From contig DATBFJ010000027.1 of NCBI GenBank assembly GCA_036558545.1, forward strand, positions 946 to 64,945: DNA of 64,000 nt, written 5' to 3'. The notes below the pieces were generated by a model. It did no database searches. It worked only from the letters and a program-made list of their open reading frames with translations, and was not told where the DNA came from. The stretch is from Candidatus Limnocylindrales bacterium. Its GTDB lineage: Bacteria > Chloroflexota > Limnocylindria > Limnocylindrales > CSP1-4. Both the position numbers and the translations under genes were made by a program. Positions within the stretch are counted from its first letter, which is position 1, and every line of letters begins with the position of its first letter. Of this stretch, positions 5,230 through 26,486 are shown one piece after another.

Positions 5230-5477
5230 AACGGGAAGTAGGTGACTAACTATACTCACCAAGGTCCCCTCGTGCGACCAGCGCGTTTGCGTGTGCCCGA
5301 GCCGGACTGCCTAAATCGCCTGGAGGAAGCTCTCCAATCGTGGACAAAGGTTGCCGTAGTCGCGGCGCACAACGCGCCGCAGGCTCAACAACGGCCCGTC
5401 CCGTCCACTAGGGAGGTGCTCGCTCAGTAGAGCGTCGAGCGCCTCTTAACGGGACGGCCACCCGTCGAGGTATCGAA
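5230..5477 (+). promoter_or_regulatory. Structured 5' leader of the mgtE-like/NRAMP operon; candidate Mg2+ (M-box-like) riboswitch
   Basis: 327-nt non-coding gap. Nested perfect helices are CCGTCCCGT 5396-5404 / ACGGGACGG 5449-5457, enclosing GAGGTGCTCG 5413-5422 / CGAGCGCCTC 5436-5445. A further hairpin is GCGGCGC 5362-5368 / GCGCCGC 5374-5380. Short M-box-like strings occur in the expected order: GTAGGTGA 5238, CTGCCTAAA 5307, CAAAG 5345, GCTCAACA 5383, GTGCT 5416. GAGG SD lies at 5467-5470. Not validated by a covariance model. Confidence 0.3.
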
Positions 5478-9162: not shown

Positions 9163-11081
9163 CACCGGTGGTCGGTGACCTGCGTCAGGAAGTCCCCCAG
9201 GGGCAACGTGTTGAGCACGTTGCCCGGCTCGAGCCACGCGCGCCGCGCCTGTGAGATGCCCCAGTCGAGGTTGTCGAACTCGACCAGGTAGTGGGCGTCC
9301 GAGTCGACAACGAAGCGATTCCCGGCATCGAGCGCGGCGCGCGCACGCCGGTCATCAAGGTCAAGACGCTCGGTTTCGCCGTTGAGCTCGAGCACCGTGC
9401 GCGTCTCGGCTGCCTCGCGATAGAAGGCATCCCAGTCGAGATCGAGATCGTCGCGGATGCCGATCTTGCGGCCGGACGGGTGGGCAATGATGTCGACATT
9501 CGGATTGCGCAGCGCCGTTCGATAACGCTCCATGAGCTGCGCGCGCGGCTGACGTCGACCCACGTGCAACGAGCACACGACGACATCGAAGCTGGCGAGC
9601 AGAGCGTCCTCGTAGTCGAGCCGGCCGTCCACGGTGATCTCGAGTTCGCAGCCGTGCAGCAGTCGGAAATCCAGGCCGTCTCGGGCAAACGATTCGTTGA
9701 GCTCGCCGATTACGCGCCGTTCCTGCTCGACACGCTGCGGGGTGAGCCCGTTGGCGATGGTCAGGCTCTGCGTGTGGTCGGTCAGCACCTGGTAATGCAG
9801 CCCACGCTGCCGCGCTTCCGCTGCCATCTGCTCGATGGTGAAATGACCGTCCGACCAATCGGAATGGGTGTGACAGTCGCCCTGGAGATCGGACCGCGTG
9901 ACCAGATTCGGAAGCTTTCCAGCTTTGGCCGCCTCGATCTCGCCGCGGTCCTCGCGCAGCTCCGGATCGATGAACGGCAGCCCGAGGAATTCGTAGACCT
10001 CCCGCTCGGTCGCGAAGGTGACCCGCTTGGCCTCGTCCTGGACGCTGGTGAAGCCATGCTCCGACAGTGACCAGCCGCGATCGCGGGCGATCTCGCGCAA
10101 TCTGACGTTGTGCGCGGCTGACCCAGTGAAATGAATGAGGTACGTTCCGGCGACGTCGGAGGGCATCGTCATCAGGTCAATCTGCGGGCCGCGGGTCATC
10201 TGCACCGACGTGCGTGTGCCACCTGTCGCGCGACCACCGTTTCCGACCCGCTCGATCCACGGTGAGTGGTGAAGCTTGTCGATCGCCGCGGCGGGATCGT
10301 CGGTTTCGACGAGCAGGTCGATGTCGGCGATCGTCTCGCGCCGCCGACGGTAGGAGCCAGCCGGGATGATCGCTTTCACGCCTGGCGCGTTGCGCAGCGA
10401 GCCCGTGACGAGATCGATGACCTCCTGCGCCTGGCCCAGGCGCATCCGCTTGGGCGGCCGCGCGCGCAGCGCCTTCAACCCCTCGAGCAGGCGCGCTTCA
10501 GTCTTTGCGCTGATGCCCTTGACCTCGCGCAACTGGCCCGCGCGCGCGGCCGCCTCCAGGGCATCGAGAGAGTCGATGCCCGCCTGGCGGTACAGGTCGC
10601 CGGCAGTGCGCGGGCCCAGGCCGGGCACCTGCAGAAGTGTCACCACGCTCGGCGGCACATCGCGGCGAAGCCGTTCGTGGTAGCGCAGCCTGCCCGTGTC
10701 CGCTAGCTCCTCGAGCTTCTCGTCGATGGCCTTGCCAACGCCGGGCAGCCTGGGCGGCCTGCCCTCGCGGTAGGCCCGGGCGATGTCCAGCGGTGAATGA
10801 GCGATCGACTCGGCTGCCCGGCGGTACGCACCTACCTTGAACGGCAGGTCGCCCTGGATCTCGAGCATGTCGCCGATCTCGTAGAAGATGCGCGCCAGCT
10901 CATCGTTGCCGAGCAACGGCACGGAGTCTCCACGGGAGAAACGTGGGCGACTCTCGTAAGGCGGCTCGTCTGGCGCGAGCGCGGCCTCCTGGAGCCCGGG
11001 GGCGGGAGTGTCGGCTTCGGTGCGTGTCGGTATATCGACGCGCTTGGGCCTGGGCGGGGCGGATCGTCGAGCCGGGCTCAT
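9162..11081 (-). CDS. polX: Family X DNA polymerase with C-terminal PHP phosphoesterase domain (PolX)
   Basis: N-terminal HhH region (NDELARIFYEIGDMLEIQGDLPFKVGAYRRAAESI, LLQVPGLGPRTAGDLY). Nucleotidyltransferase core GSYRRRRETIADIDLLV. PHP motifs DCHTHSDWSDG and VVDSDAH. The exact start is uncertain: it lies only 26 nt from the divergent ugd. Confidence 0.85.
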   Translation of the reverse strand: MSPARRSAPPRPKRVDIPTRTEADTPAPGLQEAALAPDEPPYESRPRFSRGDSVPLLGNDELARIFYEIGDMLEIQGDLPFKVGAYRRAAESIAHSPLDIARAYREGRPPRLPGVGKAIDEKLEELADTGRLRYHERLRRDVPPSVVTLLQVPGLGPRTAGDLYRQAGIDSLDALEAAARAGQLREVKGISAKTEARLLEGLKALRARPPKRMRLGQAQEVIDLVTGSLRNAPGVKAIIPAGSYRRRRETIADIDLLVETDDPAAAIDKLHHSPWIERVGNGGRATGGTRTSVQMTRGPQIDLMTMPSDVAGTYLIHFTGSAAHNVRLREIARDRGWSLSEHGFTSVQDEAKRVTFATEREVYEFLGLPFIDPELREDRGEIEAAKAGKLPNLVTRSDLQGDCHTHSDWSDGHFTIEQMAAEARQRGLHYQVLTDHTQSLTIANGLTPQRVEQERRVIGELNESFARDGLDFRLLHGCELEITVDGRLDYEDALLASFDVVVCSLHVGRRQPRAQLMERYRTALRNPNVDIIAHPSGRKIGIRDDLDLDWDAFYREAAETRTVLELNGETERLDLDDRRARAALDAGNRFVVDSDAHYLVEFDNLDWGISQARRAWLEPGNVLNTLPLGDFLTQVTDHR

Positions 11082-11107: not shown

Positions 11108-12457
11108 ATGATCCGCCCAATGGAGGAACGACAGCGGCCGCTCGACCTGGCAATCCTCGGGGCGGGATACGTGGGCCTCGTCACGGCCGCCTGCCTTGCG
11201 AAGCTTGGTTTCAACGTCCGCTGCATCGACCGAGACACGAAGCGCATCGAAGGACTGCAAAGGGGCGTGATGCCGTTCTTCGAGCCCGGCCTCGAGGATG
11301 CCGTCCACGACGGGGCGTCGAGCGGGCGCCTGCGCTTCTCCAGCGAAGCCTCATTCAGCCATTGGGCGGACGCAGTCTTCCTGTGCATTGGCACGCTCGA
11401 CGAGCGGGGCAACTGGAGTGCTCAGGACGTTGAGCGCGCACTGGCCGGCGTTGTCGCCGACAGCGAGGCACCCAGGACGATCATCGTGCGCAGCACGTTG
11501 ATGCCGACCGAAACGGCGCGGATGGCGCGTATCGCGGCAGAGGTCGATGCATCCGTCGAGATCGCGATCAATCCGGAGTTCACCCGCCAGGGAAATGCTG
11601 TTGGCGACTTCCTGCGACCCGACCGGGTTGTTGTCGGGCTGACGAAGCCAGAATCCGAGTCGAGAGCACTGCCTCTGTTGCAGCGCGTCTACATGAACGT
11701 GCGCGCACCCATCCTCGTAACCGACGCGGCTTCGGCGGAGCTGATCAAGACCGGCTCGAACGTATTCCTGGGCCTGAAGGCTGGCTTCGCCAATGAGCTC
11801 GCCCGCCTCGCCGCCGCCACCGGTGCAGACGTCGCCACGGTCGTGGACGGAATTGGCCTGGACACTCGCATCGGACGTACCTATCTGACACCGGGCCCTG
11901 GCTTCGGCGGCTCGTGTCTGCCGTCCCAGACGCGGTCTCTGCCGGATGTTTCGGCCGCCCAGGGCGTCGACACGCCGATCATCGACTCAGTCGCGAGGTC
12001 CAATGCCCAGCAGGCGCAATGGATAGCGGCCCAGGTCGAGCGGGAGGTTGGAACTCTGCGGGGAAAGCAGATCGCCGTTTTCGGACTCGCGTTCAAGGCG
12101 GGCACGGATGACGTCCGTGAGTCTCCCGCGCTCTCCCTCGCGAGGGCGCTGGCAGCGAAGGGCGCCCAGCTGGCCGGTCACGATCCGCTGGCTGAAGCGG
12201 CCGCGCAAGCGGTGCTCGCGCGCGAAGGCGTGGCGATCCGGCTCGGCGAAAAGGACATTGACGCTGCGGCGGGAGCCGACGCGATCGTCATAGCAACCGA
12301 ATGGCCCGAGTACGCGAATCTCGATTGGACTTCGCTTGCCGCGGCAATGCCGGGCCGCGCTGTTGTCGACGCCCGGCGTGTGGTCGATCAGGAGGCTGCG
12401 GCGGACGCCGGCTTCAAGGTGGTCGTCCTCGGTCGCGTCATCGCACAGCCTGACTGA
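11108..12457 (+). CDS. ugd: UDP-glucose 6-dehydrogenase
   Basis: Rossmann motif LAILGAGYVGLVTAACLA, catalytic-Cys block GFGGSCLPSQ, C-terminal UDP-binding domain (FGLAFKAGTDDVRESPA). The start is moved to ATG 11108; the ORF-track N-terminus is an Arg-rich extension overlapping polX. Confidence 0.9.
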   Translation: MIRPMEERQRPLDLAILGAGYVGLVTAACLAKLGFNVRCIDRDTKRIEGLQRGVMPFFEPGLEDAVHDGASSGRLRFSSEASFSHWADAVFLCIGTLDERGNWSAQDVERALAGVVADSEAPRTIIVRSTLMPTETARMARIAAEVDASVEIAINPEFTRQGNAVGDFLRPDRVVVGLTKPESESRALPLLQRVYMNVRAPILVTDAASAELIKTGSNVFLGLKAGFANELARLAAATGADVATVVDGIGLDTRIGRTYLTPGPGFGGSCLPSQTRSLPDVSAAQGVDTPIIDSVARSNAQQAQWIAAQVEREVGTLRGKQIAVFGLAFKAGTDDVRESPALSLARALAAKGAQLAGHDPLAEAAAQAVLAREGVAIRLGEKDIDAAAGADAIVIATEWPEYANLDWTSLAAAMPGRAVVDARRVVDQEAAADAGFKVVVLGRVIAQPD

Positions 12458-12467
12458 CCCTCGAGTC

Positions 12468-13691
12468 ATGTCCTCGCCGGCGCCTGTCCGCGTCCTCATC
12501 GTGCACCCGCGCGATCCGGCCGCGCCGACTCTTGGTGGCATCCAGACCTTCCTGCGCGACTTCATCAAGTACGCACCGGCGGACTTCGACATCAGCTTCG
12601 TGGGCACCACGCGCGACGAACGGGCTCGCCCCGTTGGCAGCTGGATGACACTCGATGTCTACGGTCGGCGGATCAAGTTCCTTGCCGTTGGAACGAACGC
12701 CGGCGTGCCGCGCTCGCCAGCGGCCATCGCACGGTCGATCAAGGGGCTCGCGCGACTGTGGCGGGCGCTCGCCGTGCATGGGCGGATCCTGCAGGTCCAT
12801 CGCCCGTACCGCAGCTTCGTGCTCAATCACCACCCGGGGCCCATTGTCCAGTTCATTCATCTCGACCTGCGCGATTGGCCGGGGCCGCAGGGCTGGCCAA
12901 AGCTCAAGGGGCTCTATCGCGAGTTCTCGGACGAAGAGTTGGAGCGCATGGACCGCGTCTACATAGTCAACGAGACCGGTGCCCTGATGCTGCGCGAGGC
13001 GCACCCGACGATGGCCGACCGGGTCGAGTTCCTGCCCGTGTGGTTCGATGCGACCATCTTCCACCGGACAGATACCGACGAGCGAGCACGATTGCGCGCA
13101 GCACTCGCAGACCGGCTCGGGCTGATGGCAGCGGACGTCAAGAAGGCCCGTTACGTCCTCTCGGCGGGGCGGCTCACGGAGATCAAGAAGCCATTGCTCG
13201 CGGTCGAGACACTGGCCGCCTTGAACGACGCGGACGTTCACCTTGTGGTGGCCGGAGCTGGTGAGCTGGGCGAGGAGCTCGCCGCGCGGGCCGGGGAGCT
13301 CGACGTTGCCGATCGCGTCCACCTCCTTGGTGACCGGCCGCGGGACGAGATCGCGCAGCTGATGCAGGCGAGTGATGCGCTTCTGCTTACCGCTCGCTCT
13401 GAGGGCGGCGGTCCGAGGGTCGTTCTCGAGGCGCTGGCGTGCGGCCTGCCGGTCGTGTCCACGAGTGTTGTCGAGGTTCGCCGGACCGTGGCCAGCGGCA
13501 TCAACGGCTGGCTAGTCGACGATGCCGCGCCGCAGGCACTGGCGCGCGGGCTGCACTGGGTGCTCAGCCAGCCACACGAGGAGCTGGCCCGTGCCGCGGC
13601 GGCCGCCGTCGAGTCATTCACGGCGGAGCAGATGCTCGACGGGTTGTACGCCGCATATCGCGCCCTCAGCTCGTCATCCGAGAGCAAGTGA
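12468..13691 (+). CDS. Glycosyltransferase, GT4 (GT-B) family
   Basis: N-terminus VRVLIVHPRDPAAPTLGGIQTF and C-terminal E-x7-E region (SEGGGPRVVLEALACGLPVVST) are typical of GT4. The start is moved to ATG 12468. Confidence 0.8.
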   Translation: MSSPAPVRVLIVHPRDPAAPTLGGIQTFLRDFIKYAPADFDISFVGTTRDERARPVGSWMTLDVYGRRIKFLAVGTNAGVPRSPAAIARSIKGLARLWRALAVHGRILQVHRPYRSFVLNHHPGPIVQFIHLDLRDWPGPQGWPKLKGLYREFSDEELERMDRVYIVNETGALMLREAHPTMADRVEFLPVWFDATIFHRTDTDERARLRAALADRLGLMAADVKKARYVLSAGRLTEIKKPLLAVETLAALNDADVHLVVAGAGELGEELAARAGELDVADRVHLLGDRPRDEIAQLMQASDALLLTARSEGGGPRVVLEALACGLPVVSTSVVEVRRTVASGINGWLVDDAAPQALARGLHWVLSQPHEELARAAAAAVESFTAEQMLDGLYAAYRALSSSSESK

Positions 13692-14626
13692 CGCGCAAAC
13701 CCGACCTGTTCATCATCGGCGCACCCAAGTCCGGTACGACGTCGCTGTACGACTACCTCGGCGGGCACCCCGAGATCTACATGTCGCCGATGAAGGAGCC
13801 ACTCTATTTCTGTCCCGACGTGCGCAGCGGCCGCAGCCGGAAGCGCCTCGAGTTCCCGCGCGACGAGGCCAGGTACCTGGCGCTGTTCTCGGACGCCAAG
13901 GATGAGAAGCGACTTGGCGAAGCGACCACGCGCTATCTCGTCTCGCACGACGCGCCCCGGCTGGTGGCCGATTTCCAGCCCAACGCGTATGCGATTGCCA
14001 TGCTGCGCAACCCTGTGGACCTTGTCTACTCGCTGCACAACGAGCGGGTGTCACAGGGCCACGAGCGGATCACGGACTTCGCCGAGGCAATCGCAGCGGA
14101 CGCCAATCGCCAGCGTGGTGTGGACCTGCCCAGGGGCACGAACGTGCTCGGCGGTGTCTACCGCGAGTCGGCGCTGTTCAGCGAGCCGCTGCAGCGCTGG
14201 TTCGAGGCGCTGGGTCGCGAGCGCGTTCACGTCGTCGTGTTCGACGACTTCGCGAGCGACCCAGATGCGGCGCTGCGACGCGTGCTGGCCTTCCTGGACG
14301 TGGGTACCGACTATCAGCCTGAATCCTTCAAGAACCGGAACGCCAGCCACCGCCAGCGCAGATGGGTCCGGCGCATAGTCGACAGCCGGGCCGGCAACTG
14401 GGTGACTCACGACGCCATCTCGGCTGTCGTGGGACCGAACAGGCGTGCACGCTTGGCATTGCGCTTCCGCCATAGCCGCATCAACCGCCGGACCGTTCCT
14501 CGCCAACGGCTCGATCCTGGTCTTCGCAAGCGCCTGGCGGACGAGTTCCGTCCAGACGTGGCCCGTCTCAGCGAGATGCTCGACCGTGACCTGGTCTCTC
14601 TCTGGTTGCCCGATGTGCCGCGCTAG
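13688..14626 (+). CDS. PAPS-dependent sulfotransferase (paralog group A)
   Basis: 5'-phosphosulfate loop IIGAPKSGTTSL and 3'-phosphate motif LRNPVDLVYSLH. GTG 13688 overlaps the upstream stop (GTGA). Confidence 0.85.
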   Translation: MTRKPDLFIIGAPKSGTTSLYDYLGGHPEIYMSPMKEPLYFCPDVRSGRSRKRLEFPRDEARYLALFSDAKDEKRLGEATTRYLVSHDAPRLVADFQPNAYAIAMLRNPVDLVYSLHNERVSQGHERITDFAEAIAADANRQRGVDLPRGTNVLGGVYRESALFSEPLQRWFEALGRERVHVVVFDDFASDPDAALRRVLAFLDVGTDYQPESFKNRNASHRQRRWVRRIVDSRAGNWVTHDAISAVVGPNRRARLALRFRHSRINRRTVPRQRLDPGLRKRLADEFRPDVARLSEMLDRDLVSLWLPDVPR

Positions 14627-15516
14627 AAGCGACTCCTGATCAGGGCATCCAGCGCGGCCGCCTGAACCTGCCAGGCGTAAAGCTGGTGCCTCTCCGCGAG
14701 GGCCCACGGTCGACTCGGCGTGCGGTTGGCGTCGACGACATGGATGCAGCCGTCCTCGCGATCGCGCAGGACGTCGAGCTCGCCGTAGTCCATCTCGATC
14801 GCCCGGGCGAATCGAATGAGCTCGTCCTGCTCGTCGACTGAGTACAGCTCGTCGGCCGTGCGCGGCAACGACAGCGTCGTGCCGAAGAATCTGTTGCTCG
14901 CGGGTCGCCACTTCTCGTACGCCAGCACGATCTGCCCATCGATGATCACGGGCCGCGTCTGGGTCACGTACTCGCCCACCGTCGTGTCGATCAGACGCTC
15001 GTAGGTCTTGCCGCGGCGCGTGTGCTCCAGCGGTCCGCGCACCACCTGGCCACCGTGTCGACCGTTCTCCTCCGGCTTGACGACGATATTGCCGCGGAAC
15101 GTTCGCGGATCGACCACCAGGCTGCGACCCGCGACTTCGTGCCAGATCCGCTGAACGCGGCTCTTCGAGATGTCCAGGCATCGACCGTTGATCGCGTTCG
15201 ACGGTAGCCGCCGGGCCGCACGAGGCGAGAACCACGTGTCGCCGTCCCAGGCGATCGTCGCTTCGTCGGCACGCGGCGAGAAGCCGACGCGCAAGCCCAG
15301 GATGCGGACCATCTCCATGATCGGCGCCCGTGGCTGCGGACGCATCGGGAAGAAGTTGAGCACCGGCGCCGTGGCCGGCAGTGTCGCGTTGTACGCGGTG
15401 ATCGCCCGAGAGGCATGACGCCATCGGCGGAAACGACGGCCGGTCAGCCGTGCGCGCCAGGGCTCCGGGATGCGCGAGAGCACACTGGCGTGCTCAAGCT
15501 GATCCGGCTGCGGCAT
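14623..15516 (-). CDS. ATP-grasp-like amidoligase candidate (paralog 1)
   Basis: Paralog of 16726-17634. Shared blocks are F.PMR.P, DISK..V, VDP.TFRG..VVKP.EN, YERL.D, VAY..WRP and GE.DVLRD..G....VDANRTP.RP, the last resembling the ATP-grasp C-terminal Mg/ATP site. The start is taken at ATG 15516 to match the paralog length and avoid overlap with 15549-16733. Confidence 0.55.
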   Translation of the reverse strand: MPQPDQLEHASVLSRIPEPWRARLTGRRFRRWRHASRAITAYNATLPATAPVLNFFPMRPQPRAPIMEMVRILGLRVGFSPRADEATIAWDGDTWFSPRAARRLPSNAINGRCLDISKSRVQRIWHEVAGRSLVVDPRTFRGNIVVKPEENGRHGGQVVRGPLEHTRRGKTYERLIDTTVGEYVTQTRPVIIDGQIVLAYEKWRPASNRFFGTTLSLPRTADELYSVDEQDELIRFARAIEMDYGELDVLRDREDGCIHVVDANRTPSRPWALAERHQLYAWQVQAAALDALIRSRF

Positions 15517-15548
15517 GCCGAGCTCGGCCGGCAGGTTTTCGCGCGTTG

Positions 15549-16733
15549 TCACCGAATGGACCGCTTTGACGAACCGTCCGGGAAGGCGCGCGGTTCCACG
15601 CCTATGTCGCCGATCAGGCCGCTCCCAATCATCGCGTCGACGGCGGGGTGAGCCGAGCGAACCGCGCGCCGCACGGCCGCCGCCACTACGGGCGAATATG
15701 CGCGCTCGTCGATCTCGATGACTACCTCCAACCCGTCGCGCCTGACGGCCCACGCAACTCCGGGACAGACGGCACCGATCTGCTGCGTGATCACGGAAAG
15801 GCTCAGTGCCTCGCCGTGCTTGATCATCGTCCCTTCTCGTCCCAGATGTGAATCAAAGGCCCAGCGCCTGACCCCGGATACTTCGACCGGACGCAAGTTG
15901 CTGACCAGGTCGCCGGCGGCGTAGCGCACGGCTGGGAAGCCGTCGCGTTCGGTGGACGTCACGACCAGGAGCTCGCCGTCGTCCTCGCGGCGGACCGGCG
16001 GCGCCATCGCTTCGGGCACGATGTGCTCGTGAAACAGGTATCGCCCGTGGTCGTCGTCCGAATAGGCGATCGCGCCGACCTCGATCGACCCGAACACGTC
16101 GACGATGCGGCCCTCCTGCATGCCTAGTCGTCGCTCCATGGCGCGCCGCCACGGCCGTGGCGCAAGATCGCCCAGGACGATGATCCATTTGGGCGTGTAG
16201 CCGGGCCCGCCGGCGCCCACGATGCGCTCGAGGATGACCGGCATCGTGTACAGCAGGTCAGCTCTCAATTCGCGCAACCTCGCCACGTGCCTATCGAGCG
16301 GATCGCGAATGTCGATCTCGTGGCCTTCCAGGCCAATGACTCGAAAAATCTCGATTGCCGACGCCTGCGCGTGTCCGGTGCCAAGATCGGCACACGCACT
16401 TGCGCATGTATCGCCGATGAGCGCTCGAAACAGCCGGGCACGCTGAGCGACATAACGCACATCATCGGCACGCGGCCAGCTGACGGTTCGGCGAGTGTCC
16501 CTGGTCGTGCCGGAGGTCGAGAAAAGGCTCCCCGGCTCAAGGTCGGCGCCCTCAGCTTCGTCCCCGGCATAGTAACCGCGGTCGAGATCCGCCTCCCTTA
16601 TCAAGGGCAGCCGTTCGAACGTCGGCGCGCCCGCAAAACCGGACTGGTTGAGCCGCGACGCGTACCACGGCGAATGGCTCGCAGCGCTCAAGGCAGCAGC
16701 CATGACACGCGACCGCTCCGCCTCGTCAAGCAT
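15549..16733 (-). CDS. Adenylate-forming enzyme, CapK / phenylacetate-CoA ligase (PaaK, F390 synthetase) family
   Basis: AMP-binding core FSTSGTTRDTRR, plus overall length and architecture typical of PaaK/CapK-like ligases found in capsule loci. Confidence 0.7.
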   Translation of the reverse strand: MLDEAERSRVMAAALSAASHSPWYASRLNQSGFAGAPTFERLPLIREADLDRGYYAGDEAEGADLEPGSLFSTSGTTRDTRRTVSWPRADDVRYVAQRARLFRALIGDTCASACADLGTGHAQASAIEIFRVIGLEGHEIDIRDPLDRHVARLRELRADLLYTMPVILERIVGAGGPGYTPKWIIVLGDLAPRPWRRAMERRLGMQEGRIVDVFGSIEVGAIAYSDDDHGRYLFHEHIVPEAMAPPVRREDDGELLVVTSTERDGFPAVRYAAGDLVSNLRPVEVSGVRRWAFDSHLGREGTMIKHGEALSLSVITQQIGAVCPGVAWAVRRDGLEVVIEIDERAYSPVVAAAVRRAVRSAHPAVDAMIGSGLIGDIGVEPRAFPDGSSKRSIR

Positions 16734-17634
16734 TGCGCAGAAGCTCCGCGAATGCCTCGCTCATCGGCCCAAAAACCGCGTCATCGTGCTCGCGGGCCAG
16801 GCTTCTGGGCCGCACCGGCGTGCGGTTTGCATCGACGGCGTAGACAAGACCGGAGACGTTGTCGCGCAGGACATCGATCTCTCCAAACTCGAGCCCGATC
16901 AGCGCGGCAAAACGGACCAGCGTCTCGCGTTCCTCGCTGGAATACAGCCGCTCTGGATCGCCAGGCAGTGTCTCCTCCGGGCCGCGAAACCAGTGCGGAT
17001 ACGGCCGCCACCGGTCGTAGGCAACGACGATCTTGCCGCGCGCCACCATCGCACGCGTCGAGTGGATCCGGTCGCCAATCCGGCTGTCCACGAGCCGCTC
17101 ATAAACCACGTTTGCGCGCGGGCTGCGGATGGGCCCGTCGACGATGCGACCCCCTCGCACCGCATTCTCGAGTGGCTTGACAACCATCGTGCCGCGAAAG
17201 GTCGTTGGGTCGACGCTGATCGAGTAGCCCGCAGCCGTGGCCCACGCCTCGTCGACCGTTCGCTTCGAGATGTCCGCGCACGCGCGGTTCAGCGCGTGAG
17301 CGGGCAACCGGTCCACGTCATCGCGGGAAATCCACGTGCCGGTGTGCCATGCGACAGTGAGGTCCGCTCTGCCCGGGAACGGCGCGATGCGAGCGCCGAC
17401 GCGAGGCAGGACATGGGCCAGGGCAGCGGTCGGCTCGAGGCGCATTGGGTAGAAGCTGACGCTCGGTGCGTCGAGCGGCAGTCGGGCGTTATGAGCACGC
17501 TGAAAGCGCACGGCGCGCAGCCAGCGCCGACCGCGCCGCACGCCAAGCCAGCCACGATATGGATCGGGAATTCGCTCAAACGCCGCTCGCGCCCGGCGCG
17601 CCACAGGACGCGCTTGTGAACCCTCCACCCACAT
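16726..17634 (-). CDS. ATP-grasp-like amidoligase candidate (paralog 2)
   Basis: See 14623-15516. About 40 percent identity by eye across ~250 aa. Overlaps the downstream gene by 8 nt. Confidence 0.55.
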   Translation of the reverse strand: MWVEGSQARPVARRARAAFERIPDPYRGWLGVRRGRRWLRAVRFQRAHNARLPLDAPSVSFYPMRLEPTAALAHVLPRVGARIAPFPGRADLTVAWHTGTWISRDDVDRLPAHALNRACADISKRTVDEAWATAAGYSISVDPTTFRGTMVVKPLENAVRGGRIVDGPIRSPRANVVYERLVDSRIGDRIHSTRAMVARGKIVVAYDRWRPYPHWFRGPEETLPGDPERLYSSEERETLVRFAALIGLEFGEIDVLRDNVSGLVYAVDANRTPVRPRSLAREHDDAVFGPMSEAFAELLRNA

Positions 17635-17647
17635 ATCATCGCTTGCG

Positions 17648-19153
17648 TTGTCTGCCTGGAAGATCGACTACTGCCCGAGCCCGGACCTTCCACCGCTGGC
17701 CTGGGTAGCTCGGGTACACGCGTCGAGGGTCGCCGTTGCGTGCGGCCTATCCATCCGCACACAGGACGACGCGTTCTTCGACGGCACTTGGGTCGGCGGT
17801 CAGGACCTTGCAAGCGTGCTCGATTCGACGACACCATTCGGCGCCGGAATGGTCGTCCGTGACGGGGAGCTGTTCATCGTGCCGGCCGGCCACACATGCG
17901 AGGGTGTCTACCTCTGCCGGCCCGATGGCGCCGACAACACGCTCTACGTGAGCAACTCGATTGCGGGCCTGCTCGAGGCGACGGGTTTGTCGCTGGTCAA
18001 AGGCGTCGACTATGTGAGCCGCATGATCAGGCTCGCAGAAGGGCTCGATTTCACCCCGATAGAGATCCCGACAAGCGGTGCGCCAATCGAGTTTCACTAT
18101 TTCGAGAACCTGCGGATCGACGAACGCGGCCGCGTGACGATCATTCCGAAACCGCGCGAGAAGCCGTTCGTGTCGTACGACGACTACCTCGCGCGCATGG
18201 AGGCAGCCGCCGCCTCGCTCTTTGCCAACGCATCCGGCTACGAGCCGGTCATTGCCCTTTCAAATGGCTACGACAGCACGGCCATGGCCGTCATCGCGCA
18301 GCATGCCGGACTGCGCCGCGCCGTGACGTTCGCCAATGCGCGGCCGGCACGCGAGAACGAGTCGGATACGGAGGACAGCGGAGCCGCAACCGCCGGGCGG
18401 CTGGGTATCGCGGCGCAGGTCATCGATCGTGTCTCGTACATGGAGCGCGACGATTTGCCGGAGGCCGAATTCCTCGCGACCGGCGGCCCCGGCGAGGACG
18501 TCGCGAACAGCGCGATGGAGCCTGAGCTGCACCGCCGCTTGCTGATCACTGGCGATGTCGGCGCGGCCCTGTACCGCTTCGGCCGGCCCAAGCGCTCGGA
18601 CCTGTGGCGACTCGACCTTTCCGGCTCGTCGATGACCGAGTACCGCCTGCGTGTCGACTTCATGTTCGTGCCACTGCCCGTGTTCGGGATGACGGAAATC
18701 CCGAGCCTGCAGGAGATCACGCTCTCAGAAGAGATGAAGCCGTGGTCGATCGGCAGCTACTACGACCGACCCATCGCACGGCGCATAGGCGAGGAGGCAG
18801 GCGGCCTGCCGCGCGGCTCGTTCGCCGCCGTCAAGCACGCCGCGACAGCACTTATTCACCAGGATCCGGAGCGATGCATGTCCGCCGCAAGCCTGCGTGC
18901 GCTGCGCGACTTTGCCGCTGCCGAGGGGACGAAGCTGACGTTGGTGGAGCGTAAGCCGTTGCGCAGGCGAGAGCGCTTCGTGATCAAGGCGTCACGTCGA
19001 TTTCACGTTGATCAAATCGGCCGCGAGCTGGCCGCGCGGCAATGGGCGATGATCCACCACGAGCCGCGCCAGGGCTCTGTGTTATTTCGCTGGGGCGTGT
19101 CCGTCATTCGGCCGCGCTACGCCGCCGTCAGCGAGCTCCTGCCCGAGCGTTAG
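17648..19153 (+). CDS. Asparagine-synthetase-like PP-loop ATP pyrophosphatase lacking the N-terminal Cys nucleophile
   Basis: VIALSNGYDSTAMAV matches the SGGxDS PP-loop of AsnB-type synthetase domains. The N-terminal ~180 aa have an Ntn-like fold flavour but no Cys2. TTG start as in the ORF track; the start is uncertain. Confidence 0.5.
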   Translation: MSAWKIDYCPSPDLPPLAWVARVHASRVAVACGLSIRTQDDAFFDGTWVGGQDLASVLDSTTPFGAGMVVRDGELFIVPAGHTCEGVYLCRPDGADNTLYVSNSIAGLLEATGLSLVKGVDYVSRMIRLAEGLDFTPIEIPTSGAPIEFHYFENLRIDERGRVTIIPKPREKPFVSYDDYLARMEAAAASLFANASGYEPVIALSNGYDSTAMAVIAQHAGLRRAVTFANARPARENESDTEDSGAATAGRLGIAAQVIDRVSYMERDDLPEAEFLATGGPGEDVANSAMEPELHRRLLITGDVGAALYRFGRPKRSDLWRLDLSGSSMTEYRLRVDFMFVPLPVFGMTEIPSLQEITLSEEMKPWSIGSYYDRPIARRIGEEAGGLPRGSFAAVKHAATALIHQDPERCMSAASLRALRDFAAAEGTKLTLVERKPLRRRERFVIKASRRFHVDQIGRELAARQWAMIHHEPRQGSVLFRWGVSVIRPRYAAVSELLPER

Positions 19154-20439
19154 TGCGCGACGACCACGCGATTGCGGCCCTGGCGCTTGGCCGTATAGAG
19201 CGCCTCATCGGCCGCCGCCAGTAGAACCGGTACCTCGCCGGCGCGAACCTCGCCGACGGCGACACCGACCGAGACCGTGATCGGCTCGGCGACGCCGATG
19301 TCGACCGGCGGAATCTCGTTGATCTGGCGACGGATGCGCTCCGCGATCTCAACGGCCTGATCGGCCGTGGCCCTGCGCAACACCACGGCGAACTCTTCGC
19401 CGCCGTAACGCGCCGGCGTGTCCTCCGCTCGCACGGCGATCGAGATGCGCTCGCCGACAGCCCGCAGCACTCGATCGCCAGTGGCGTGGCCGTATCGGTC
19501 GTTGAGCTTCTTGAAGTTGTCGAGGTCGATCATTAACGCTCCCAGTCGATCGACATCGCGTCGCCGCGGCCCCACGCTCGACAGCAGCTCCTCGAGGTAG
19601 CGCCGGTTGGGCAGGCCGGTCAACACGTCGAGATTGGCCTGGTTTTCGGCACGCTCGAAGGCGAATGCGCGGGCGAGCGCCGCCGAGAGCTCGGAAGAGG
19701 CCCACGAAAGGAGCCGCCTGTCGGCAATGGTCCAGTCGCGTCTCTGCCGCCTGGAAAGGATCAACGCACCGATGATCTGGCCGTCCGCCACGAGCGGCAT
19801 CGCCAGCGTGTTGCGCAGCGCATACGATTCGCCCAGACGCTGCGCGATCTCGTCGGCCACGAGCTGTCCATCGTGGTTTTGCGTGTCGTGGCCGGGCACG
19901 GTCTGGCGGCGCAGCTGGGGCAGCCGCGACGGATCGAGGATGCCCGCGGCAAAGACCGTCCTCGAGGGTGGTACGCGGGCACGGCTCGAGACCAGTGTCG
20001 CCTCGACGACATGTTCCACCGGGCGAAGACGAGCGACCAGAATGTGGTCCGCGTCGGCCGCGCTGCGCAACTCGTCGACTATCGTCTGGACGATTGCCTC
20101 GGAGGAGACGGACCGCGACATGCCCTGAAGCATTCGCGTCAATCCCGCGTCGCGTGCGGTCCTACGCGCTGCGAGCCGGCGACTCAGCTCGATCTGCGTC
20201 CAGATTCCAATGCCAACCGCAATCACGCAGCCAAGCTCGAGCACGACCAATGGGTCAACGGGATTTCGTACGAGGCTGACGACGAGCAGCGCGCCGAGCA
20301 ACGCCAGGATCGCGTACATGGTTCGGCGCACTCGACGCAAGAGCGTCCGCTCGAATGCATCGGTGGCGTTGGGAGCGCTGGGAGTGCCGCGGAGGCTCGT
20401 ATCGCTCAGCTGATCCGGCTGTTGCTCAACGGTCGCCAC
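19150..20439 (-). CDS. Membrane-anchored GAF-GGDEF diguanylate cyclase
   Basis: Two N-terminal TM helices (MYAILALLGALLVVSL, LELGCVIAVGIGIWTQI) and a central GAF-like region. GGDEF domain with active site RYGGEEF and I-site RAED five residues upstream. The start is inferred at GTG 20439 (alternative ATG 20319); the ORF-track start overlaps the next gene. Confidence 0.85.
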   Translation of the reverse strand: MATVEQQPDQLSDTSLRGTPSAPNATDAFERTLLRRVRRTMYAILALLGALLVVSLVRNPVDPLVVLELGCVIAVGIGIWTQIELSRRLAARRTARDAGLTRMLQGMSRSVSSEAIVQTIVDELRSAADADHILVARLRPVEHVVEATLVSSRARVPPSRTVFAAGILDPSRLPQLRRQTVPGHDTQNHDGQLVADEIAQRLGESYALRNTLAMPLVADGQIIGALILSRRQRRDWTIADRRLLSWASSELSAALARAFAFERAENQANLDVLTGLPNRRYLEELLSSVGPRRRDVDRLGALMIDLDNFKKLNDRYGHATGDRVLRAVGERISIAVRAEDTPARYGGEEFAVVLRRATADQAVEIAERIRRQINEIPPVDIGVAEPITVSVGVAVGEVRAGEVPVLLAAADEALYTAKRQGRNRVVVAH

Positions 20440-20515
20440 TGTACGTGAGCATCGCTGGCTTTCCGTCGCGCGTATACCCCGCTCTTTCGTACGGGTCAGC
20501 CACCATGACGTCTGG

Positions 20516-21391
20516 CTACGCCGGGTCGTACCCCATCTCGAGCAGACCTCTGTCAAAGGCCTCGAAGCGCCGCTGTTGCCGTGACGTAAGCACCTGGCGC
20601 CAACCCTCGACAGCACCCTGGCCGAGCAGACTGATGCCACTGTGCCTGGCCGCCCGCGGAACGACGTGAGGCGTGGAGCGCATCGCTTCTCGCTCGGCAG
20701 CGCGCATCCGCTCGAGCGAGCAGATCTCAACGACCTCGGCCGCGCGGCCCGCGCTGATATCGAGACCGAGCCACCGCCCGATCTCCATCACGTGAGCCTG
20801 CGGATCGGCGCGAAGATCCTCGTAGCGAACGCGCAGGACTGCGCATCTCCCGTTCCGGGCGGCATCCAACCACGAGTCGAGGTGCGTCTGCCACGTACCG
20901 TGCGCGTCAGCACGACCGTCGACGAAGGCATCGACAAAATGATCGAACGACGCACGCTCATCGTCCGTCGCCAGGACGACGATCTGCTCGACGCGTTGCA
21001 TGTACCGGAAATACGAGACGACGATGTCTCTCGGGTCGCGAACGAGATGTATCGCGCGCCGGTAGACCGGCAGATACGGCTCGTGCGTCTTTATCAGCCG
21101 GCCGCCACCGGGAACCAGGCTGGGAGCGCCCGCCTGCGCGCCAACGTATGGCACCTCGTCATAGGCCGTGTCGAACCCGGAGCGCCGGCCCGTCATCTCG
21201 AGCAGGAGGAAGCGCAGCCAGGCATTTCCCGAGCGCGGGTATGAGGCCACGAAGACATCCTTCTCCGTCAGGCCTCGATGGTCGCGGTCGACCTTGAGGA
21301 TGCGACGCAAGGGCGAGCGCCGGTAGATCCGGCGAAGGACATCGGCACCGTCGGAGCCGCGGGCAATCTTGCCTGCCTTCGCCTGGGTCAC
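20516..21391 (-). CDS. PAPS-dependent sulfotransferase (divergent type B)
   Basis: YPRSGNAWLRFLL (5'-PSB loop) and IHLVRDPRDIVVSYF (3'-PB motif). The GTG start overlaps the upstream stop (GTGA). Confidence 0.8.
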   Translation of the reverse strand: MTQAKAGKIARGSDGADVLRRIYRRSPLRRILKVDRDHRGLTEKDVFVASYPRSGNAWLRFLLLEMTGRRSGFDTAYDEVPYVGAQAGAPSLVPGGGRLIKTHEPYLPVYRRAIHLVRDPRDIVVSYFRYMQRVEQIVVLATDDERASFDHFVDAFVDGRADAHGTWQTHLDSWLDAARNGRCAVLRVRYEDLRADPQAHVMEIGRWLGLDISAGRAAEVVEICSLERMRAAEREAMRSTPHVVPRAARHSGISLLGQGAVEGWRQVLTSRQQRRFEAFDRGLLEMGYDPA

Positions 21392-22491
21392 AGCTCGCGC
21401 AGCGCGTGGCGGTAGACGTCGCGGTGTTGGCCGGCGACGTCGGCCCAGGTCCTGCGGCCGGCGCGCTCGCGGCCGCGCTGCACGAGATCGTCGTGCTGCG
21501 CGAGCGCGCGCACGATGCCGTTTGCGATGTCAGTCTCGTCGCGCGGATCCACCAGCACTGCTGCTCCGCCGGCCGCATCAGGCATGGCCGTCGTGCGCGA
21601 CGTGACGACGGCCGCTCCGATCGCCATGGCGTCCAGGACGGGCATGCCGAACCCCTCGTACAGGGAAACGTACGCGACTGCGCCGCTCTCGCGGATGAGC
21701 TCGCCAAGCTCGTCGTCCGGCAGATAGCCGGTCAGCGAGATGAGACTTCGAGCAGGACTGTCTGCGATTCGTCGATCGATTCCATCCGAACGCCAGCCCC
21801 TGGCGCCGGCCAGGACCAGCTTGAGATCCGGCTCAACTGCCGCGAGCCTTTCGAACGCGCCGACGAGACGCTCGATGTTCTTGCGCGGCTCGACCGTGCC
21901 GAAATACAGGATGTAGCGTCGAGCCTCGAGTCCGAGGCGTGCCAGCACGGCCGTCCCGGGCGCCGCGGCGGCCTGGTCGATTGCGGCAGCGTGCGGAATC
22001 ACGACTACACGTCGCTGCGAGACGCCTATCCGGCCCAGCTCGCGCGCGGTGAAGCGCGATGGAACGATGACAGCTCGCGCGCGAGCCATCGCGACCAGGT
22101 TGATCGGCACGATCGGCCAGCGGGCGAGCGGATGGGTCCAGGGCATGCGCGCGACCGAGAGGTCATGCACGGTCAGCACGTAGGGCAGCCTGGCGGCAAG
22201 CGGCGCCGCCGCGTTCGTGTAGTGCACCAATCTCGCTCCCACGGCCACGGCGTCGAGTTCTGCGGCAAGCTGCATCCAGGCGTGGTAGGTCCGCCTCGTG
22301 AATGTTCGAAAAGTCACCTCGCCAAGAGTCGGCGCCAGCAAACCCTCGGGGCGAACGCCGATCAGGGCGAAGTCGGGCTCAGTCGAACGCATCAACTCGC
22401 GCGCGAGGAGCGCGGCGTAGAGTCCGACACCGGCGGGCTGTGCGCGGACCGGGCCGACGTCCAGCGCGACCGTATCTTTGTGAGCAATCAC
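21388..22491 (-). CDS. Glycosyltransferase, GT4 family
   Basis: DVGPVRAQPAGVGLY N-terminus and C-terminal YEGFGMPVLDAMAIGAAVVTS (E-x7-E). The start is inferred at GTG 22491 rather than 22545, which removes the overlap with the divergent gene. Confidence 0.8.
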   Translation of the reverse strand: MIAHKDTVALDVGPVRAQPAGVGLYAALLARELMRSTEPDFALIGVRPEGLLAPTLGEVTFRTFTRRTYHAWMQLAAELDAVAVGARLVHYTNAAAPLAARLPYVLTVHDLSVARMPWTHPLARWPIVPINLVAMARARAVIVPSRFTARELGRIGVSQRRVVVIPHAAAIDQAAAAPGTAVLARLGLEARRYILYFGTVEPRKNIERLVGAFERLAAVEPDLKLVLAGARGWRSDGIDRRIADSPARSLISLTGYLPDDELGELIRESGAVAYVSLYEGFGMPVLDAMAIGAAVVTSRTTAMPDAAGGAAVLVDPRDETDIANGIVRALAQHDDLVQRGRERAGRRTWADVAGQHRDVYRHALREL

Positions 22492-22530
22492 AGGCCGATA
22501 AGCATGCGCGATCCTACGAGGGGCACGTAA

Positions 22531-23433
22531 GTGGGCGGTCTCCACGAACGGAGTGGCTATCGCATATCAGTCATCGTGCCGACTCGCGTTGGCTGGCCCG
22601 ACATGCGCCGTAGCCTCGACGCGATCCTGCCTCAGCTTGAACGCTCTGGCGCCGAGCTGATCGTCGCCGACTCGAGCGGCCGGCCCCTGCCCGACTTCGC
22701 GGACGCGGACAACGTCACGTGGCTGCTGATGCCCGGCGCGCCCAGTCACGCGCTGCGGCAGGCCGCCTACGCAGCCGCCACTGGACCAGTCATCGCCATC
22801 ACCGAGGACCACTGCATGCCTGAAGCCGCGTGGCTCGAGCACATTCTCGAAGAGCATGAGCGCGACCCGGACGCGGCCGGAATCTTCGGACTGGTCGACA
22901 ACGGCTCGCGCGATCACGCGGTCGATTGGGCGCTGTTCAGCGTGGGCTACCTGGCATGGGCGCCGCCGAAACCGGCGCTGCGCGGTTCGCCTGGGCACGC
23001 GAATCTCTCATTCAAGAGCTGGATCTTTGACGTTATGCCCGCTCTCGACGACCAGGTCCTCGAGTTTCGCTATGTCGCGGCCCTGCGCCTGGCGGGCTAT
23101 CGCGTCGTCGGCACCGACCGAACGCTGGTGACCCATTTCCAATCAGCCGGCCTGCCTGCCACGGCGGCACTGATGTTCCACAACGGCCGAACAATCGCGG
23201 GGCTGAGGCGCAAGCGCATGACGGCGGTGGACTGGCTTCGCGTCGGCGCGCCGGGTCCGGTGGCGATCTTCAGGTCGTGGCGGATGATGCGCCTTGCCAG
23301 GGACAAGCGGCAGATCCAGGGTGCCGTACAACGCAGCCTGCCGCTGATCGTGGTGCTCAATCTTGCCCACACGGTCGGCGAGAGCGTCGGCTATCTTGGA
23401 GGTGCTGGACAAAGCGGTCGCCGGCTCCACTGA
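22531..23433 (+). CDS. GT-A (GT2-like) glycosyltransferase, tandem paralog 1
   Basis: ISVIVPTRVGWPDMRRSLDAILPQ...ELIVADSSG resembles the GT2 N-terminus. ITEDHC sits at the DxD position. C-terminal GGAGQSGRRLH tail is shared with paralogs 2 and 3. Confidence 0.7.
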   Translation: MGGLHERSGYRISVIVPTRVGWPDMRRSLDAILPQLERSGAELIVADSSGRPLPDFADADNVTWLLMPGAPSHALRQAAYAAATGPVIAITEDHCMPEAAWLEHILEEHERDPDAAGIFGLVDNGSRDHAVDWALFSVGYLAWAPPKPALRGSPGHANLSFKSWIFDVMPALDDQVLEFRYVAALRLAGYRVVGTDRTLVTHFQSAGLPATAALMFHNGRTIAGLRRKRMTAVDWLRVGAPGPVAIFRSWRMMRLARDKRQIQGAVQRSLPLIVVLNLAHTVGESVGYLGGAGQSGRRLH

Positions 23434-23443
23434 GGGAGGTTCG

Positions 23444-24364
23444 ATGTCGTCCGAATCGCTGCCCATCACCGCGCTCATCGCGACCATCCGTGGTTGGCCT
23501 GCCTGCCGCCAGGCTGTCACGCTCATCGCCGAACAGGTCGCTCGAGCCGGGGGTGAATTCATCGTCGCCGACGGTTCCCAGAACGCACCGCCCAGTGCGG
23601 AGGAGCTGGAGCAGCTGGGCGGTGCCGTGCGCTGGCTCTCACTGCCGGGCCAATCGGTATTTCAGTTGCGCCACGCCGGCTATCAACAGGCCCGCGGCGA
23701 GGTCGTCGCGATCACCGAGGACCATTGCTACGTTGCCCCCGACTGGGTCGAGCGTGTTATTGAGGCTCACCGCCGGCATCCGGATGCGGCCGCGGTAGGT
23801 GGCACGGTGGTCAACAACACGGACGAGAAGGTGGTCGACTGGGCAGCATTCTTTCTTACCCAGGGGCCGTTCATGCCGCCCCTTGAGAACGGCGTCGCGG
23901 ACCGCATTTCCGGCCCGGCCAACGTTTCGTACAAACGTCACGTGCTCGAGCGGCTCGGGGGCGACGACGAGCAGGGGGTCATCGACTTTCTCGAGCTGCC
24001 GCAGGTACTCGACGGCCAGCAGCTCGTGGCCGACGACACGATCGTCGTGCGCCACAATCAATCGCAGGGCCTCCGAGGCACGTCGCTGGCGGAGTTCGAT
24101 AACGGCCGGACGATCGCCGGCTATCGAAGACGGCAGATGGAGCGCGGCGACTGGCTGCGCATCATGAGCGCGCCTGTGCTGCCAACGTACCGCGCCGTGC
24201 GTCAGATGCGAATCGTGCGCAACAAGCGAATGCCAGACGGCATGACCTCGACGCGCATGGCCAAGGCTCTCCCGGCGCACCTGTGGTTCCAGTACTGCGC
24301 GATGGCCGGCGAGCTGCTCGGCTACGCGACCGGCCCGGGCGACAGCCCTCGCCGGCTGTTCTGA
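23444..24364 (+). CDS. GT-A (GT2-like) glycosyltransferase, tandem paralog 2
   Basis: ITALIATIRGWP...EFIVADGSQ, ITEDHC, ANVSYKR, FDNGRTIAGYRR, GPGDSPRRLF. The start is moved to ATG 23444. Confidence 0.7.
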   Translation: MSSESLPITALIATIRGWPACRQAVTLIAEQVARAGGEFIVADGSQNAPPSAEELEQLGGAVRWLSLPGQSVFQLRHAGYQQARGEVVAITEDHCYVAPDWVERVIEAHRRHPDAAAVGGTVVNNTDEKVVDWAAFFLTQGPFMPPLENGVADRISGPANVSYKRHVLERLGGDDEQGVIDFLELPQVLDGQQLVADDTIVVRHNQSQGLRGTSLAEFDNGRTIAGYRRRQMERGDWLRIMSAPVLPTYRAVRQMRIVRNKRMPDGMTSTRMAKALPAHLWFQYCAMAGELLGYATGPGDSPRRLF

Positions 24365-24369
24365 CAGCC

Positions 24370-25272: not shown

Positions 25273-25295
25273 AACCAGCCACACTCGCAGCTGTC

Positions 25296-26399: not shown

Positions 26400-26486
26400 A
26401 TCGTCCGGAGACTCCGTTGAAGCGGCCCGTCCCGCGTTTCCTACCTATACTCCTGCCCTCTCCTGGTGCCCCAGTGAGGAGAGTTC

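Follow-up and report, generated by a model that had tools for sequence, protein, structure and literature searches.

A putative amide-bond-forming cassette in a variable slot of a sulfated exopolysaccharide locus of Limnocylindria

Uronic acids in many O-antigens, capsules and exopolysaccharides (EPS) are amidated with ammonia, amino acids or amino alcohols, and to our knowledge the enzymes responsible are known for very few polysaccharides. In Campylobacter jejuni, the TupA-like ATP-grasp domain at the C-terminus of Cj1438, which is fused to a family 2 glycosyltransferase (GT2), uses ATP to amidate the C6 carboxylate of glucuronic acid (GlcA) in the growing HS:2 capsule (PMC11800379), and AsnB-type amidotransferases, e.g., WbpS, were proposed to turn uronate carboxylates into amides in O-antigen pathways (PMC6025236). 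The biosynthesis of dapdiamides combines an ATP-grasp enzyme, an adenylating ligase and an AsnB-type enzyme (PMC12568646), and McjC was described as a homolog of AsnB (PMC5067487). Here, we describe four adjacent genes, A to D, on a stretch of 64,000 nucleotides (GC content ~66%; contig DATBFJ010000027.1, positions 946 to 64,945, referred to in the following as the window) from Candidatus Limnocylindrales bacterium. According to Pfam scans of the surrounding open reading frames (ORFs), they lie within a ~30-kb Wzx/Wzy-type polysaccharide locus and encode two ATP-grasp ligase-like paralogs (A and C), a putative DdaG-type amide-bond synthetase (B) and an AsnB-fold protein lacking the catalytic Cys (D).

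We propose that A to D form a cytoplasmic, ATP-dependent amide-bond-forming cassette, whose target is the lipid-linked repeat unit of a Wzx/Wzy exopolysaccharide that is sulfated and contains uronic acid; this unit would be decorated before flipping. This assignment appears rather probable to us, and glycan amidation as such is supported but unproven. Glycan amidation by ATP-grasp (TupA-like, Cj1438C) and AsnB-type (WbpS) enzymes is already known, as are DdaG-type ligases. New here are an ATP-grasp and an AsnB-like family which are large, lack a Pfam match, reach only sub-threshold scores in NCBIfam and fail the profiles of known glycan-modifying families, and furthermore flippase fusions, a combinatorial gene slot and the link to an EPS locus of Limnocylindria with heavy sulfation.

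Like Cj1438, genes A and C are found in a capsule/EPS locus together with a gene for Ugd (UDP-glucose/GDP-mannose dehydrogenase family), and GT2 fusions also occur in their family; however, both proteins are stand-alone, do not match the TupA-like model PF14305 and have RimK as the nearest Pfam family. The alpha-L-glutamate ligases RimK, LysX and MptN are their closest relatives in sequence, including the Mg-ligand Asp, but these matches remain below the family thresholds, and both genomic context and fusions point to glycan rather than to protein or cofactor substrates. Gene D shares with the WbpS-type enzymes an AsnB fold and the location in a polysaccharide locus, whereas canonical AsnB features an N-terminal Cys glutaminase and the Pfam domains GATase_7 and Asn_synthase, neither of which is present in D. 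Beta-lactam synthetase (BLS), carbapenam synthetase and lasso cyclases activate a carboxylate by adenylation and join it to an amine borne by the substrate. With these enzymes, D has in common the two-domain AsnB fold, a non-glutaminase N-terminal domain and an intact PP-loop, although the sequence similarity is marginal, a context of beta-lactams or of ribosomally made, post-translationally modified peptides (RiPPs) is missing, and the D family is glycan-linked and often tandemly duplicated.

The dapdiamide ligases DdaG, DdaF (ATP-grasp) and DdaH (AsnB-type amidotransferase) represent the same three enzyme classes, encoded together as in the cassette. The latter differs in its location in a glycan locus without genes for diaminopropionate (DAP) synthesis, an oxygenase or an exporter, in its Cys-less AsnB-like partner and in its ATP-grasp partners, which belong to another, unnamed family. 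Since dapdiamide-like clusters with distant B homologs follow this known natural-product logic, the combination of three activation chemistries is not unique to the cassette, and the original prediction made from the sequence of the window, which called this redundancy unusual, needs correction in this point. A literature search for Limnocylindria EPS, for sulfated EPS with amide ligases and for characterized members of the A/C or D families returned nothing specific.

The four genes and their products

Genes A (14623-15516/15552), B (15549-16733) and C (16726-17634) are encoded on the minus strand, and gene D (17648-19153) on the plus strand. A third-position GC bias of 0.75-0.79 supports coding and thus argues for all four ORFs being real genes. 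All sequence-level statements of the original prediction were confirmed on checking, including the tight packing of the minus-strand genes: C and B overlap by 8 nt (16726-16733), and the gap between B and A is 32 nt if A starts at ATG 15516 (297 aa). The database protein P0001, a hypothetical protein from a "Candidatus Limnocylindrales bacterium" metagenome-assembled genome that is 100% identical to A, starts at GTG 15552 instead (309 aa), and this start overlaps the stop codon of B as GTGA (15549-15552). Such an overlap suggests that B and A may be translationally coupled. As noted originally, the start codons of the divergent genes C and D are separated by a spacer of 13 nt (17635-17647), read directly from the sequence, and the same spacing recurs in the syntenic loci L001 (7980-7992) and L004 (6238-6250); both promoters are therefore located inside the respective partner gene, or the mRNAs are leaderless. 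Hydropathy profiles identify all four proteins as soluble and free of transmembrane segments, with A being basic, and this, together with their ATP dependence, places the four enzymes in the cytoplasm.

The products of A and C were expected to be ATP-grasp-like paralogs of about 40% identity, and both expectations proved correct. BLASTP aligned them with 43% identity over 280 aa (E = 4e-78), C keeps the blocks VVKP, GEIDVLRD and VDANRTP, and no further A/C copies were found in the window. At the level of single sequences, neither protein matched a Pfam family at E <= 1, NCBIfam gave only sub-threshold matches (MptN weakly) and none of significance to a curated ATP-grasp model, and a search of the PDB with A returned nothing useful. 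An alignment of 60 family members, which is the basis of the structural model, the conservation analysis and the profile, yielded an AlphaFold2 (AF2) model of A with a mean pLDDT of 94.8. When this model was compared to the PDB by Foldseek, 146 matches were obtained at E <= 1e-3, and the best 50 of these 146 are all ATP-grasp-fold proteins with a probability of 1.0; the partners include L-amino-acid ligase, PsnB, RimK, LysX/ArgX, Ddl, PylC, synapsin and inositol-phosphate kinases. TM-scores for A reached up to 0.59 and were moderate for our models in general (0.4-0.59), for which the domain orientation is probably responsible. Moreover, the model of A features the pre-ATP-grasp N-terminal alpha/beta domain that is typical of carboxylate-amine ligases.

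The A/C family profile matched RimK with E = 1.2e-3 in an alignment that covers the C-terminal half of the ATP-grasp core and places the Mg-ligand D248 of RimK on D248 of A. In line with this, RimK (PF08443) is the most recurrent Pfam signal among the individual members, although weak (8 of 60; best E = 0.0039) and below the gathering score, while Ins134_P3_kin and YheCD appear in three of the 60 members each. Invariant throughout the alignment are K147, which belongs to VVKP and is followed by a Gly-rich loop, as well as R188, D248, R251 and D262, while at least 90% of the sequences have N264. Residues K147, D248, D262 and N264 fit the nucleotide/Mg2+ site of ATP-grasp enzymes with its acidic/acidic/Asn triad, and D262-x-N264 could represent the E-x-N motif. 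Both proteins stand alone, are ~300 aa long and carry a conserved basic N-terminal helix. Judged by these features, A and C are catalytically plausible ATP-grasp enzymes from a family that neither Pfam nor NCBIfam models, and its nearest relatives are the RimK-type carboxylate-amine ligases and not the TupA-like family. Their own family comprises at least 1,489 representatives at 50% identity with E <= 1e-3, 931 of them with E <= 1e-30.

Gene B encodes a protein with the acyl-adenylate motif FSTSGTTRDTRR, and its proposed assignment to the CapK/PaaK-type adenylating enzymes is in agreement with its PaaK/DdaG-type profile and its invariant ANL motifs. While a direct Pfam scan of B gave no match, the NCBIfam model DdaG (NF041596) was matched with E = 4e-63 and 213.6 bits by residues 20-379 (model positions 13-373 of 390), i.e., below the equivalog cut-off of 700 bits, which would indicate the same function as DdaG, a fumarate-DAP ligase; PaaK was matched weakly, both in NCBIfam and as PDB entry 2y4o. 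P0216, a database protein 100% identical to B, carries the Pfam domain PF27279 (DdaG_C), which was also found in 72 of 77 other B homologs among those listed. Residues T73-S74-G75-T76, E218, D275, R299, K305 and K390 are invariant in 36 B-family sequences and fit the ANL core, namely the P-loop T/S-S-G-T-T, G-x-x-E, G-D, the hinge G-R and the C-terminal catalytic Lys.

Among the more distant B homologs, two dapdiamide-like clusters were observed. In Streptomyces griseorubiginosus (L164, 5922-16153), the cluster comprises PALP and OCD genes for DAP synthesis, a DdaG_C ligase, AsnB, an Asp/Arg hydroxylase-type oxygenase, an ATP-grasp_4 protein and an MFS gene, and a smaller one with a YheCD-type ATP-grasp is present in Paenibacillus sp. 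YPG26 (L163, 7032-11200). Unlike in these two clusters, no PALP + OCD pair was found beside the cassette.

For D, the AF2 model (mean pLDDT 95.5) retrieved BLS as the best Foldseek match (1mc1/1jgt, E = 2.7e-11, TM ~0.49), followed by carbapenam synthetase (1q19) and, further down, by AsnB (1ct9) and human ASNS (E = 2e-7 to 3e-7, probability 1.0) as well as TsnB9. TM-scores were ~0.45-0.5, and the two-domain AsnB architecture is common to D and its top matches. In BLS, Tyr348, Glu382 and Lys443 are catalytic residues for lactam formation. The PP-loop of D reads LSNGYDST (S205-N-G207-Y-D209-S210), with G207 and D209 being invariant in 60 sequences. The protein starts with MSAWK, and across the 60 family members no residue before W4 and no N-terminal Cys is conserved, nor does the open frame of D contain an in-frame start codon upstream of 17648. 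Despite the lack of this nucleophile, the N-terminal domain is strongly conserved. D is hence indeed an AsnB-like PP-loop protein without Cys, as had been noted from its sequence, and we regard it as a putative adenylating synthetase of the AsnB/beta-lactam-synthetase fold.

Sequence searches with D do not reach BLS. A single-sequence search of the PDB returned nothing useful, Pfam gave no match at E <= 1, including Asn_synthase (PF00733) and GATase_7, and none of the curated AsnB models of NCBIfam was matched significantly. The family profile weakly matches the PP-loops of LarE, NAD synthetase and GMP synthase, and weak matches of individual members point to NAD synthetase (21 of 60), asparagine synthase (8 of 60) and LarE (7 of 60). 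The best curated sequence model for the family is the lasso-type macrolactam cyclase model NF033561, with weak matches in 16 of the 60 members (best E = 1.1e-6), D itself not being among them. Comparisons by hhalign of the D family with true AsnB (30 residues aligned) and with a recurrent 517-aa Asn_synthase-like neighbor were confined to the PP-loop region and of low probability.

Variable slot, relatives and fusions

The cassette is located between the sulfotransferase gene ST1 and a GGDEF gene. Whereas the four genes had been regarded as one module, a comparison of related loci revealed a mosaic built from two pairs, C|D and B-to-A, which assort independently in a variable slot of an otherwise conserved locus. 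In 15 of 22 related cases (relatives classed by best match), a C-type gene has D as its neighbor on the opposite strand, a number that, like all co-occurrence counts in this study, is descriptive, as contigs were anchor-selected, partly related and often truncated and a background rate is lacking. A-type genes follow B or are found alone between GGDEF and ST1 (L083). In related Limnocylindria-type loci, the slot beside the GGDEF gene contains A, BD, CD, CDDC, ABCD or BCDA, and D is its most constant member, being present alone in some related EPS loci (L009). Such a pattern would be expected for the decoration of a surface polymer under diversifying selection.

The GAF-GGDEF gene bordering the slot is kept at the same position in related loci (60-81% identical). 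Arrays of D-family genes were further observed in EPS loci of Chloroflexota, namely four D genes with one ATP-grasp gene (L007, 10001-16907) and the order ATP-grasp, D, D, ATP-grasp (L010, 6699-11562), which suggests a rapid local duplication of the AsnB-like gene.

A co-occurrence of homologs with glycan genes was seen in many phyla. Relatives of D are present in at least eight phyla (Chloroflexota, Actinomycetota, Pseudomonadota, Gemmatimonadota, Acidobacteriota, Planctomycetota, Bacillota and Rokubacteria), and tandem copies are common. For the D family, species-representative genomes were surveyed, the neighbors were clustered across 79 loci and representatives were scanned with Pfam. Recurrent neighbors are a second Asn_synthase-like protein (13 loci) and Wzx-type flippases (11 loci), but also GT4, DegT aminotransferase and GDP-mannose-dehydratase-type genes, true AsnB (four loci) and AMP-binding enzymes (four loci); canonical AsnB genes accompany D homologs in L045 and L077. 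In Mycolicibacterium vaccae NBRC 14118 (L019), the D homolog has an A/C-like gene nearby as well as genes for a UDP-sugar dehydrogenase, GH113, acyltransferase_3 and an AMP-binding enzyme. The gene order in Microvirga massiliensis JC119 (L045) is A-like, D, GT2, GT2, true AsnB.

Close A/C relatives with visible flanks mostly have D or B as a neighbor, together with the same EPS genes, L002, L086 and L100 being exceptions. For distant members of the A family (30-40% identical), GT4 is the commonest neighbor (17 of ~35 loci with usable flanks), and GT2, sulfotransferase, Stealth and GT9 genes recur as well. On four contigs (L119, L120, L135 and L140, e.g., L140 880-2079), a SerA-like D-2-hydroxyacid dehydrogenase with an ACT domain is encoded beside such distant A-family genes. 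These neighbors may recall the phospho-amine supply genes of the GlcA-amidation pathway of C. jejuni, although the four contigs could stem from related organisms.

About one tenth of the best 150 A/C-family representatives are fusion proteins. A glycan-assembly domain is present in six of ten scanned fusions, the other four featuring an extra segment without a Pfam domain. GT2 and ATP-grasp domains are joined in either order (P0308, P0353 and P0382), and Wzx flippases are fused to one ATP-grasp domain (P0392 and P0437, ~700 aa) or to two copies (P0294). Two fusions were checked on their contigs of 1.8-3 kb and are encoded there by uninterrupted ORFs. We know of no description of Wzx flippase-ATP-grasp fusions, including for TupA-like enzymes. 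Because of these GT2 and Wzx fusions, which represent our strongest argument, we assume that members of the A/C family act at the cytoplasmic membrane face, with the lipid-linked glycan as their target. The fusions of a Wzx-type flippase with one or two A/C-type ATP-grasp domains, to which P0296 (like P0294 ~1020 aa long) and L165 (48-2156) also belong, stem from soil metagenome contigs.

Proposed function and alternative explanations

In the native locus, Ugd is likely the source of a uronic acid and would supply GlcA for the polymer. By analogy with Cj1438C, A and C most likely act as ADP-forming ATP-grasp carboxylate-amine ligases via an acyl-phosphate, whereas B would be an AMP-forming DdaG-type amide-bond synthetase proceeding via an acyl-adenylate. 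D would be an AsnB-fold synthetase that adenylates by means of its PP-loop and, having lost the nucleophile of the glutaminase, joins the adenylated carboxylate to an amine, like BLS and lasso cyclases; as it lacks a glutaminase, this amine would be free ammonia or borne by a substrate, and not glutamine-derived ammonia. The carboxylate is most likely the C6 of GlcA, or else the one left free on an amino or dicarboxylic acid that GlcA already carries. Uronate carboxylates, as originally suggested, may serve as acyl substrate. C would work together with D, and B with A, and the independent assortment of these two pairs would generate polymer variants. For C and D, the tight pairing suggests a sequential action, e.g., addition of an amino acid followed by amidation or cyclization of its free carboxylate.

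Several points weigh against a decoration of the exopolysaccharide by the cassette. While folds, motifs, glycan context and fusions were observed, we infer the acyl and amine substrates, the sequence of steps and the action of every single enzyme on the glycan, and the lineage is uncultured and without a polymer structure. No genes making a dedicated amine substrate are present in the locus. PF14305 matched neither A nor C at E <= 1, and even at E <= 10 none of the 60 family members matched it; by profile, the paralogs are not TupA-like, as had been suggested originally, and RimK is their nearest Pfam family. Inositol-phosphate kinases (PPIP5K2, Asp1/Vip1 and ITPK1) score like ligases in the Foldseek comparison with A, the only characterized relative of B makes a soluble antibiotic, and distant B homologs are found in dapdiamide-like clusters and not in glycan loci. 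Moreover, a B+D pair is encoded beside BioY, rhomboid and MFS genes outside of a glycan locus (L003), an A-family gene (49% identical; L002, 10001-10903) stands by itself on a 453-kb contig, flanked by uvrB and pyk and distant from glycan genes, and the neighborhood counts are, as stated above, descriptive.

Could the cassette instead produce a soluble, dapdiamide-like pseudopeptide, i.e., a secondary metabolite whose genes merely happen to be located in a polysaccharide locus? Such a product would agree with DdaG as the only characterized relative of B, with the B+D pair of L003 and with the clustering of distant B homologs from Streptomyces and Paenibacillus with DAP-synthesis genes, a true AsnB, an ATP-grasp enzyme and an MFS exporter, and dapdiamide assembly indeed relies on the same three enzyme classes (PMC12568646). 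Nevertheless, we consider it very unlikely, as neither PALP + OCD nor a tailoring oxygenase or exporter accompanies the cassette, A/C and D show no significant match to curated NCBIfam ATP-grasp or AsnB models, their families are tied to glycan genes across phyla, including the A/C fusions to GT2 and Wzx, and it is always the same slot of a conserved EPS locus that harbors the cassette. When DAP-synthesis genes were sought in the window, the sole PALP gene (54036-55256) was located 35 kb off among housekeeping genes. A different acceptor, such as a poly-amino-acid chain as in RimK-like or poly-glutamate systems, a protein C-terminus or a cell-wall polymer that is co-regulated with the EPS or attached to it in a teichuronopeptide-like manner, appears improbable to us. 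The nearest A/C relatives in sequence are alpha-L-glutamate ligases that extend poly-Glu tails, the weak lasso-type cyclase matches of the D family speak for peptide-like carboxylates as substrates, and attachment of the polymer to the wall is evident from the LCP ligase of the locus; in and beside the cassette, however, neither a candidate acceptor protein nor a precursor peptide is encoded, there is practically no intergenic space, and the fusions involve glycan enzymes rather than peptide-processing domains.

Two further explanations retain the glycan context but assign other roles to individual enzymes. It is highly improbable in our view that A and C are kinases or phosphotransferases acting on a hydroxyl group of a sugar or polyol, leaving amide formation to B and D only. 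PPIP5K2, Asp1/Vip1 and ITPK1 are among the top Foldseek matches with TM-scores like those of ligases, and a few A/C-family members match Ins134_P3_kin weakly, but the sequence relatives are ligases (RimK with the profile at E = 1.2e-3 and in 8 of 60 members, MptN weakly), the model of A contains the pre-ATP-grasp domain, and the GT2 fusions mirror the architecture of the amidoligase Cj1438. An unlikely, albeit less remote, option is that D functions as an ammonia-dependent uronamide synthase, equivalent to WbpS without its glutaminase, while the other three genes act independently. Consistent with this, D is the most constant gene of the slot, stands alone in some related EPS loci and has an intact PP-loop, and uronamide formation in O-antigen pathways has been ascribed to AsnB-type amidotransferases (PMC6025236). 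On the other hand, its N-terminal domain is strongly conserved although it lacks the nucleophile, C-type genes are tightly paired with D, with starts 13 nt apart and a pairing that extends to other phyla, and the best relatives of D in both structure and sequence use a substrate-borne amine. A RiPP system composed of a graspetide ATP-grasp and a lasso cyclase had been considered because of the weak PsnB and lasso-type matches; it was rejected, as there is no room for a precursor, no peptidase near the cassette, and the fusions are to glycan enzymes.

Beyond the amidation of the exopolysaccharide proposed above, a more far-reaching idea, which we regard as doubtful, is that the two families constitute an unrecognized toolkit for amide-linked, peptide-like or lactam substituents of polysaccharides, and that the combinatorial slot of Limnocylindria, with its DdaG-type ligase, builds a dapdiamide-like pseudopeptide on a sulfated GlcA polymer. 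In such a scheme, the C-type ATP-grasp would add an amino acid, whose free carboxylate would then be amidated, cyclized or cross-linked by D. If confirmed as glycan amidoligases, the enzymes would provide new annotation markers for amide-decorated polysaccharides and stand-alone amide-forming biocatalysts, and would offer a first look at the diversification of sulfated surface polymers in Limnocylindria, an abundant uncultured lineage of soil and freshwater. The cultured carriers M. vaccae and M. massiliensis make the idea of glycan amidation directly testable.

The surrounding polysaccharide locus

Upstream of the cassette, the plus strand encodes Ugd (11135-12457), with the N-terminal, central and C-terminal domains of Pfam UDPG_MGDP_dh, followed by a GT4 glycosyltransferase and ST1 (12336-14626; GT4 to 13691, ST1 ~13700-14626), which were assigned by Glycos_transf_1 and Sulfotransfer_3/_1, respectively; ST1 is convergent with gene A. 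On the other side, a GAF-GGDEF diguanylate cyclase gene (19150-20730, minus strand; Pfam GGDEF and GAF) is convergent with gene D, the two overlapping by 4 nt, and is followed by the sulfotransferase gene ST2 (20516-21391, minus strand; Sulfotransfer_1). The remainder of the Wzx/Wzy-type sulfated-polysaccharide locus (21388-41168) was assigned by Pfam scans. After ST2, the gene order is GT4, three GT2, a priming sugar transferase, a protein with ten transmembrane segments, Wzx, LCP, WecG and a Wzy_C protein, continuing with GT4, three more sulfotransferases, an epimerase/dehydratase and APS kinase (end ~41168).

Altogether, five sulfotransferases and an APS kinase are encoded in this one locus (13403-14626, 20516-21391, 35641-36699, 36700-37740, 39311-40603 and 40359-41168). 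Four of the five sulfotransferases are ST1-type paralogs with 38-46% identity, and an ATP sulfurylase was not identified among the window ORFs scanned.

The protein encoded at 27841-29442 consists of 533 aa with ~10 transmembrane segments predicted from its hydropathy profile and has no Pfam match; counterparts with 43-47% identity are present in L088-L090. It may represent a second Wzy-like polymerase or a ligase beside the Wzy_C protein (32705-34504). No match to Ugd was found between PolX and GT4 in L001, a locus on a 372-kb contig that is otherwise syntenic with the window upstream of Ugd: positions 4272-11081 of the window correspond to 13679-19353 of L001, with genes for a TPR protein, an MgtE_N/CBS protein, Nramp and PolX at ~65% protein identity. 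Downstream of the polysaccharide locus, the window continues with genes for fatty-acid synthesis and housekeeping functions.

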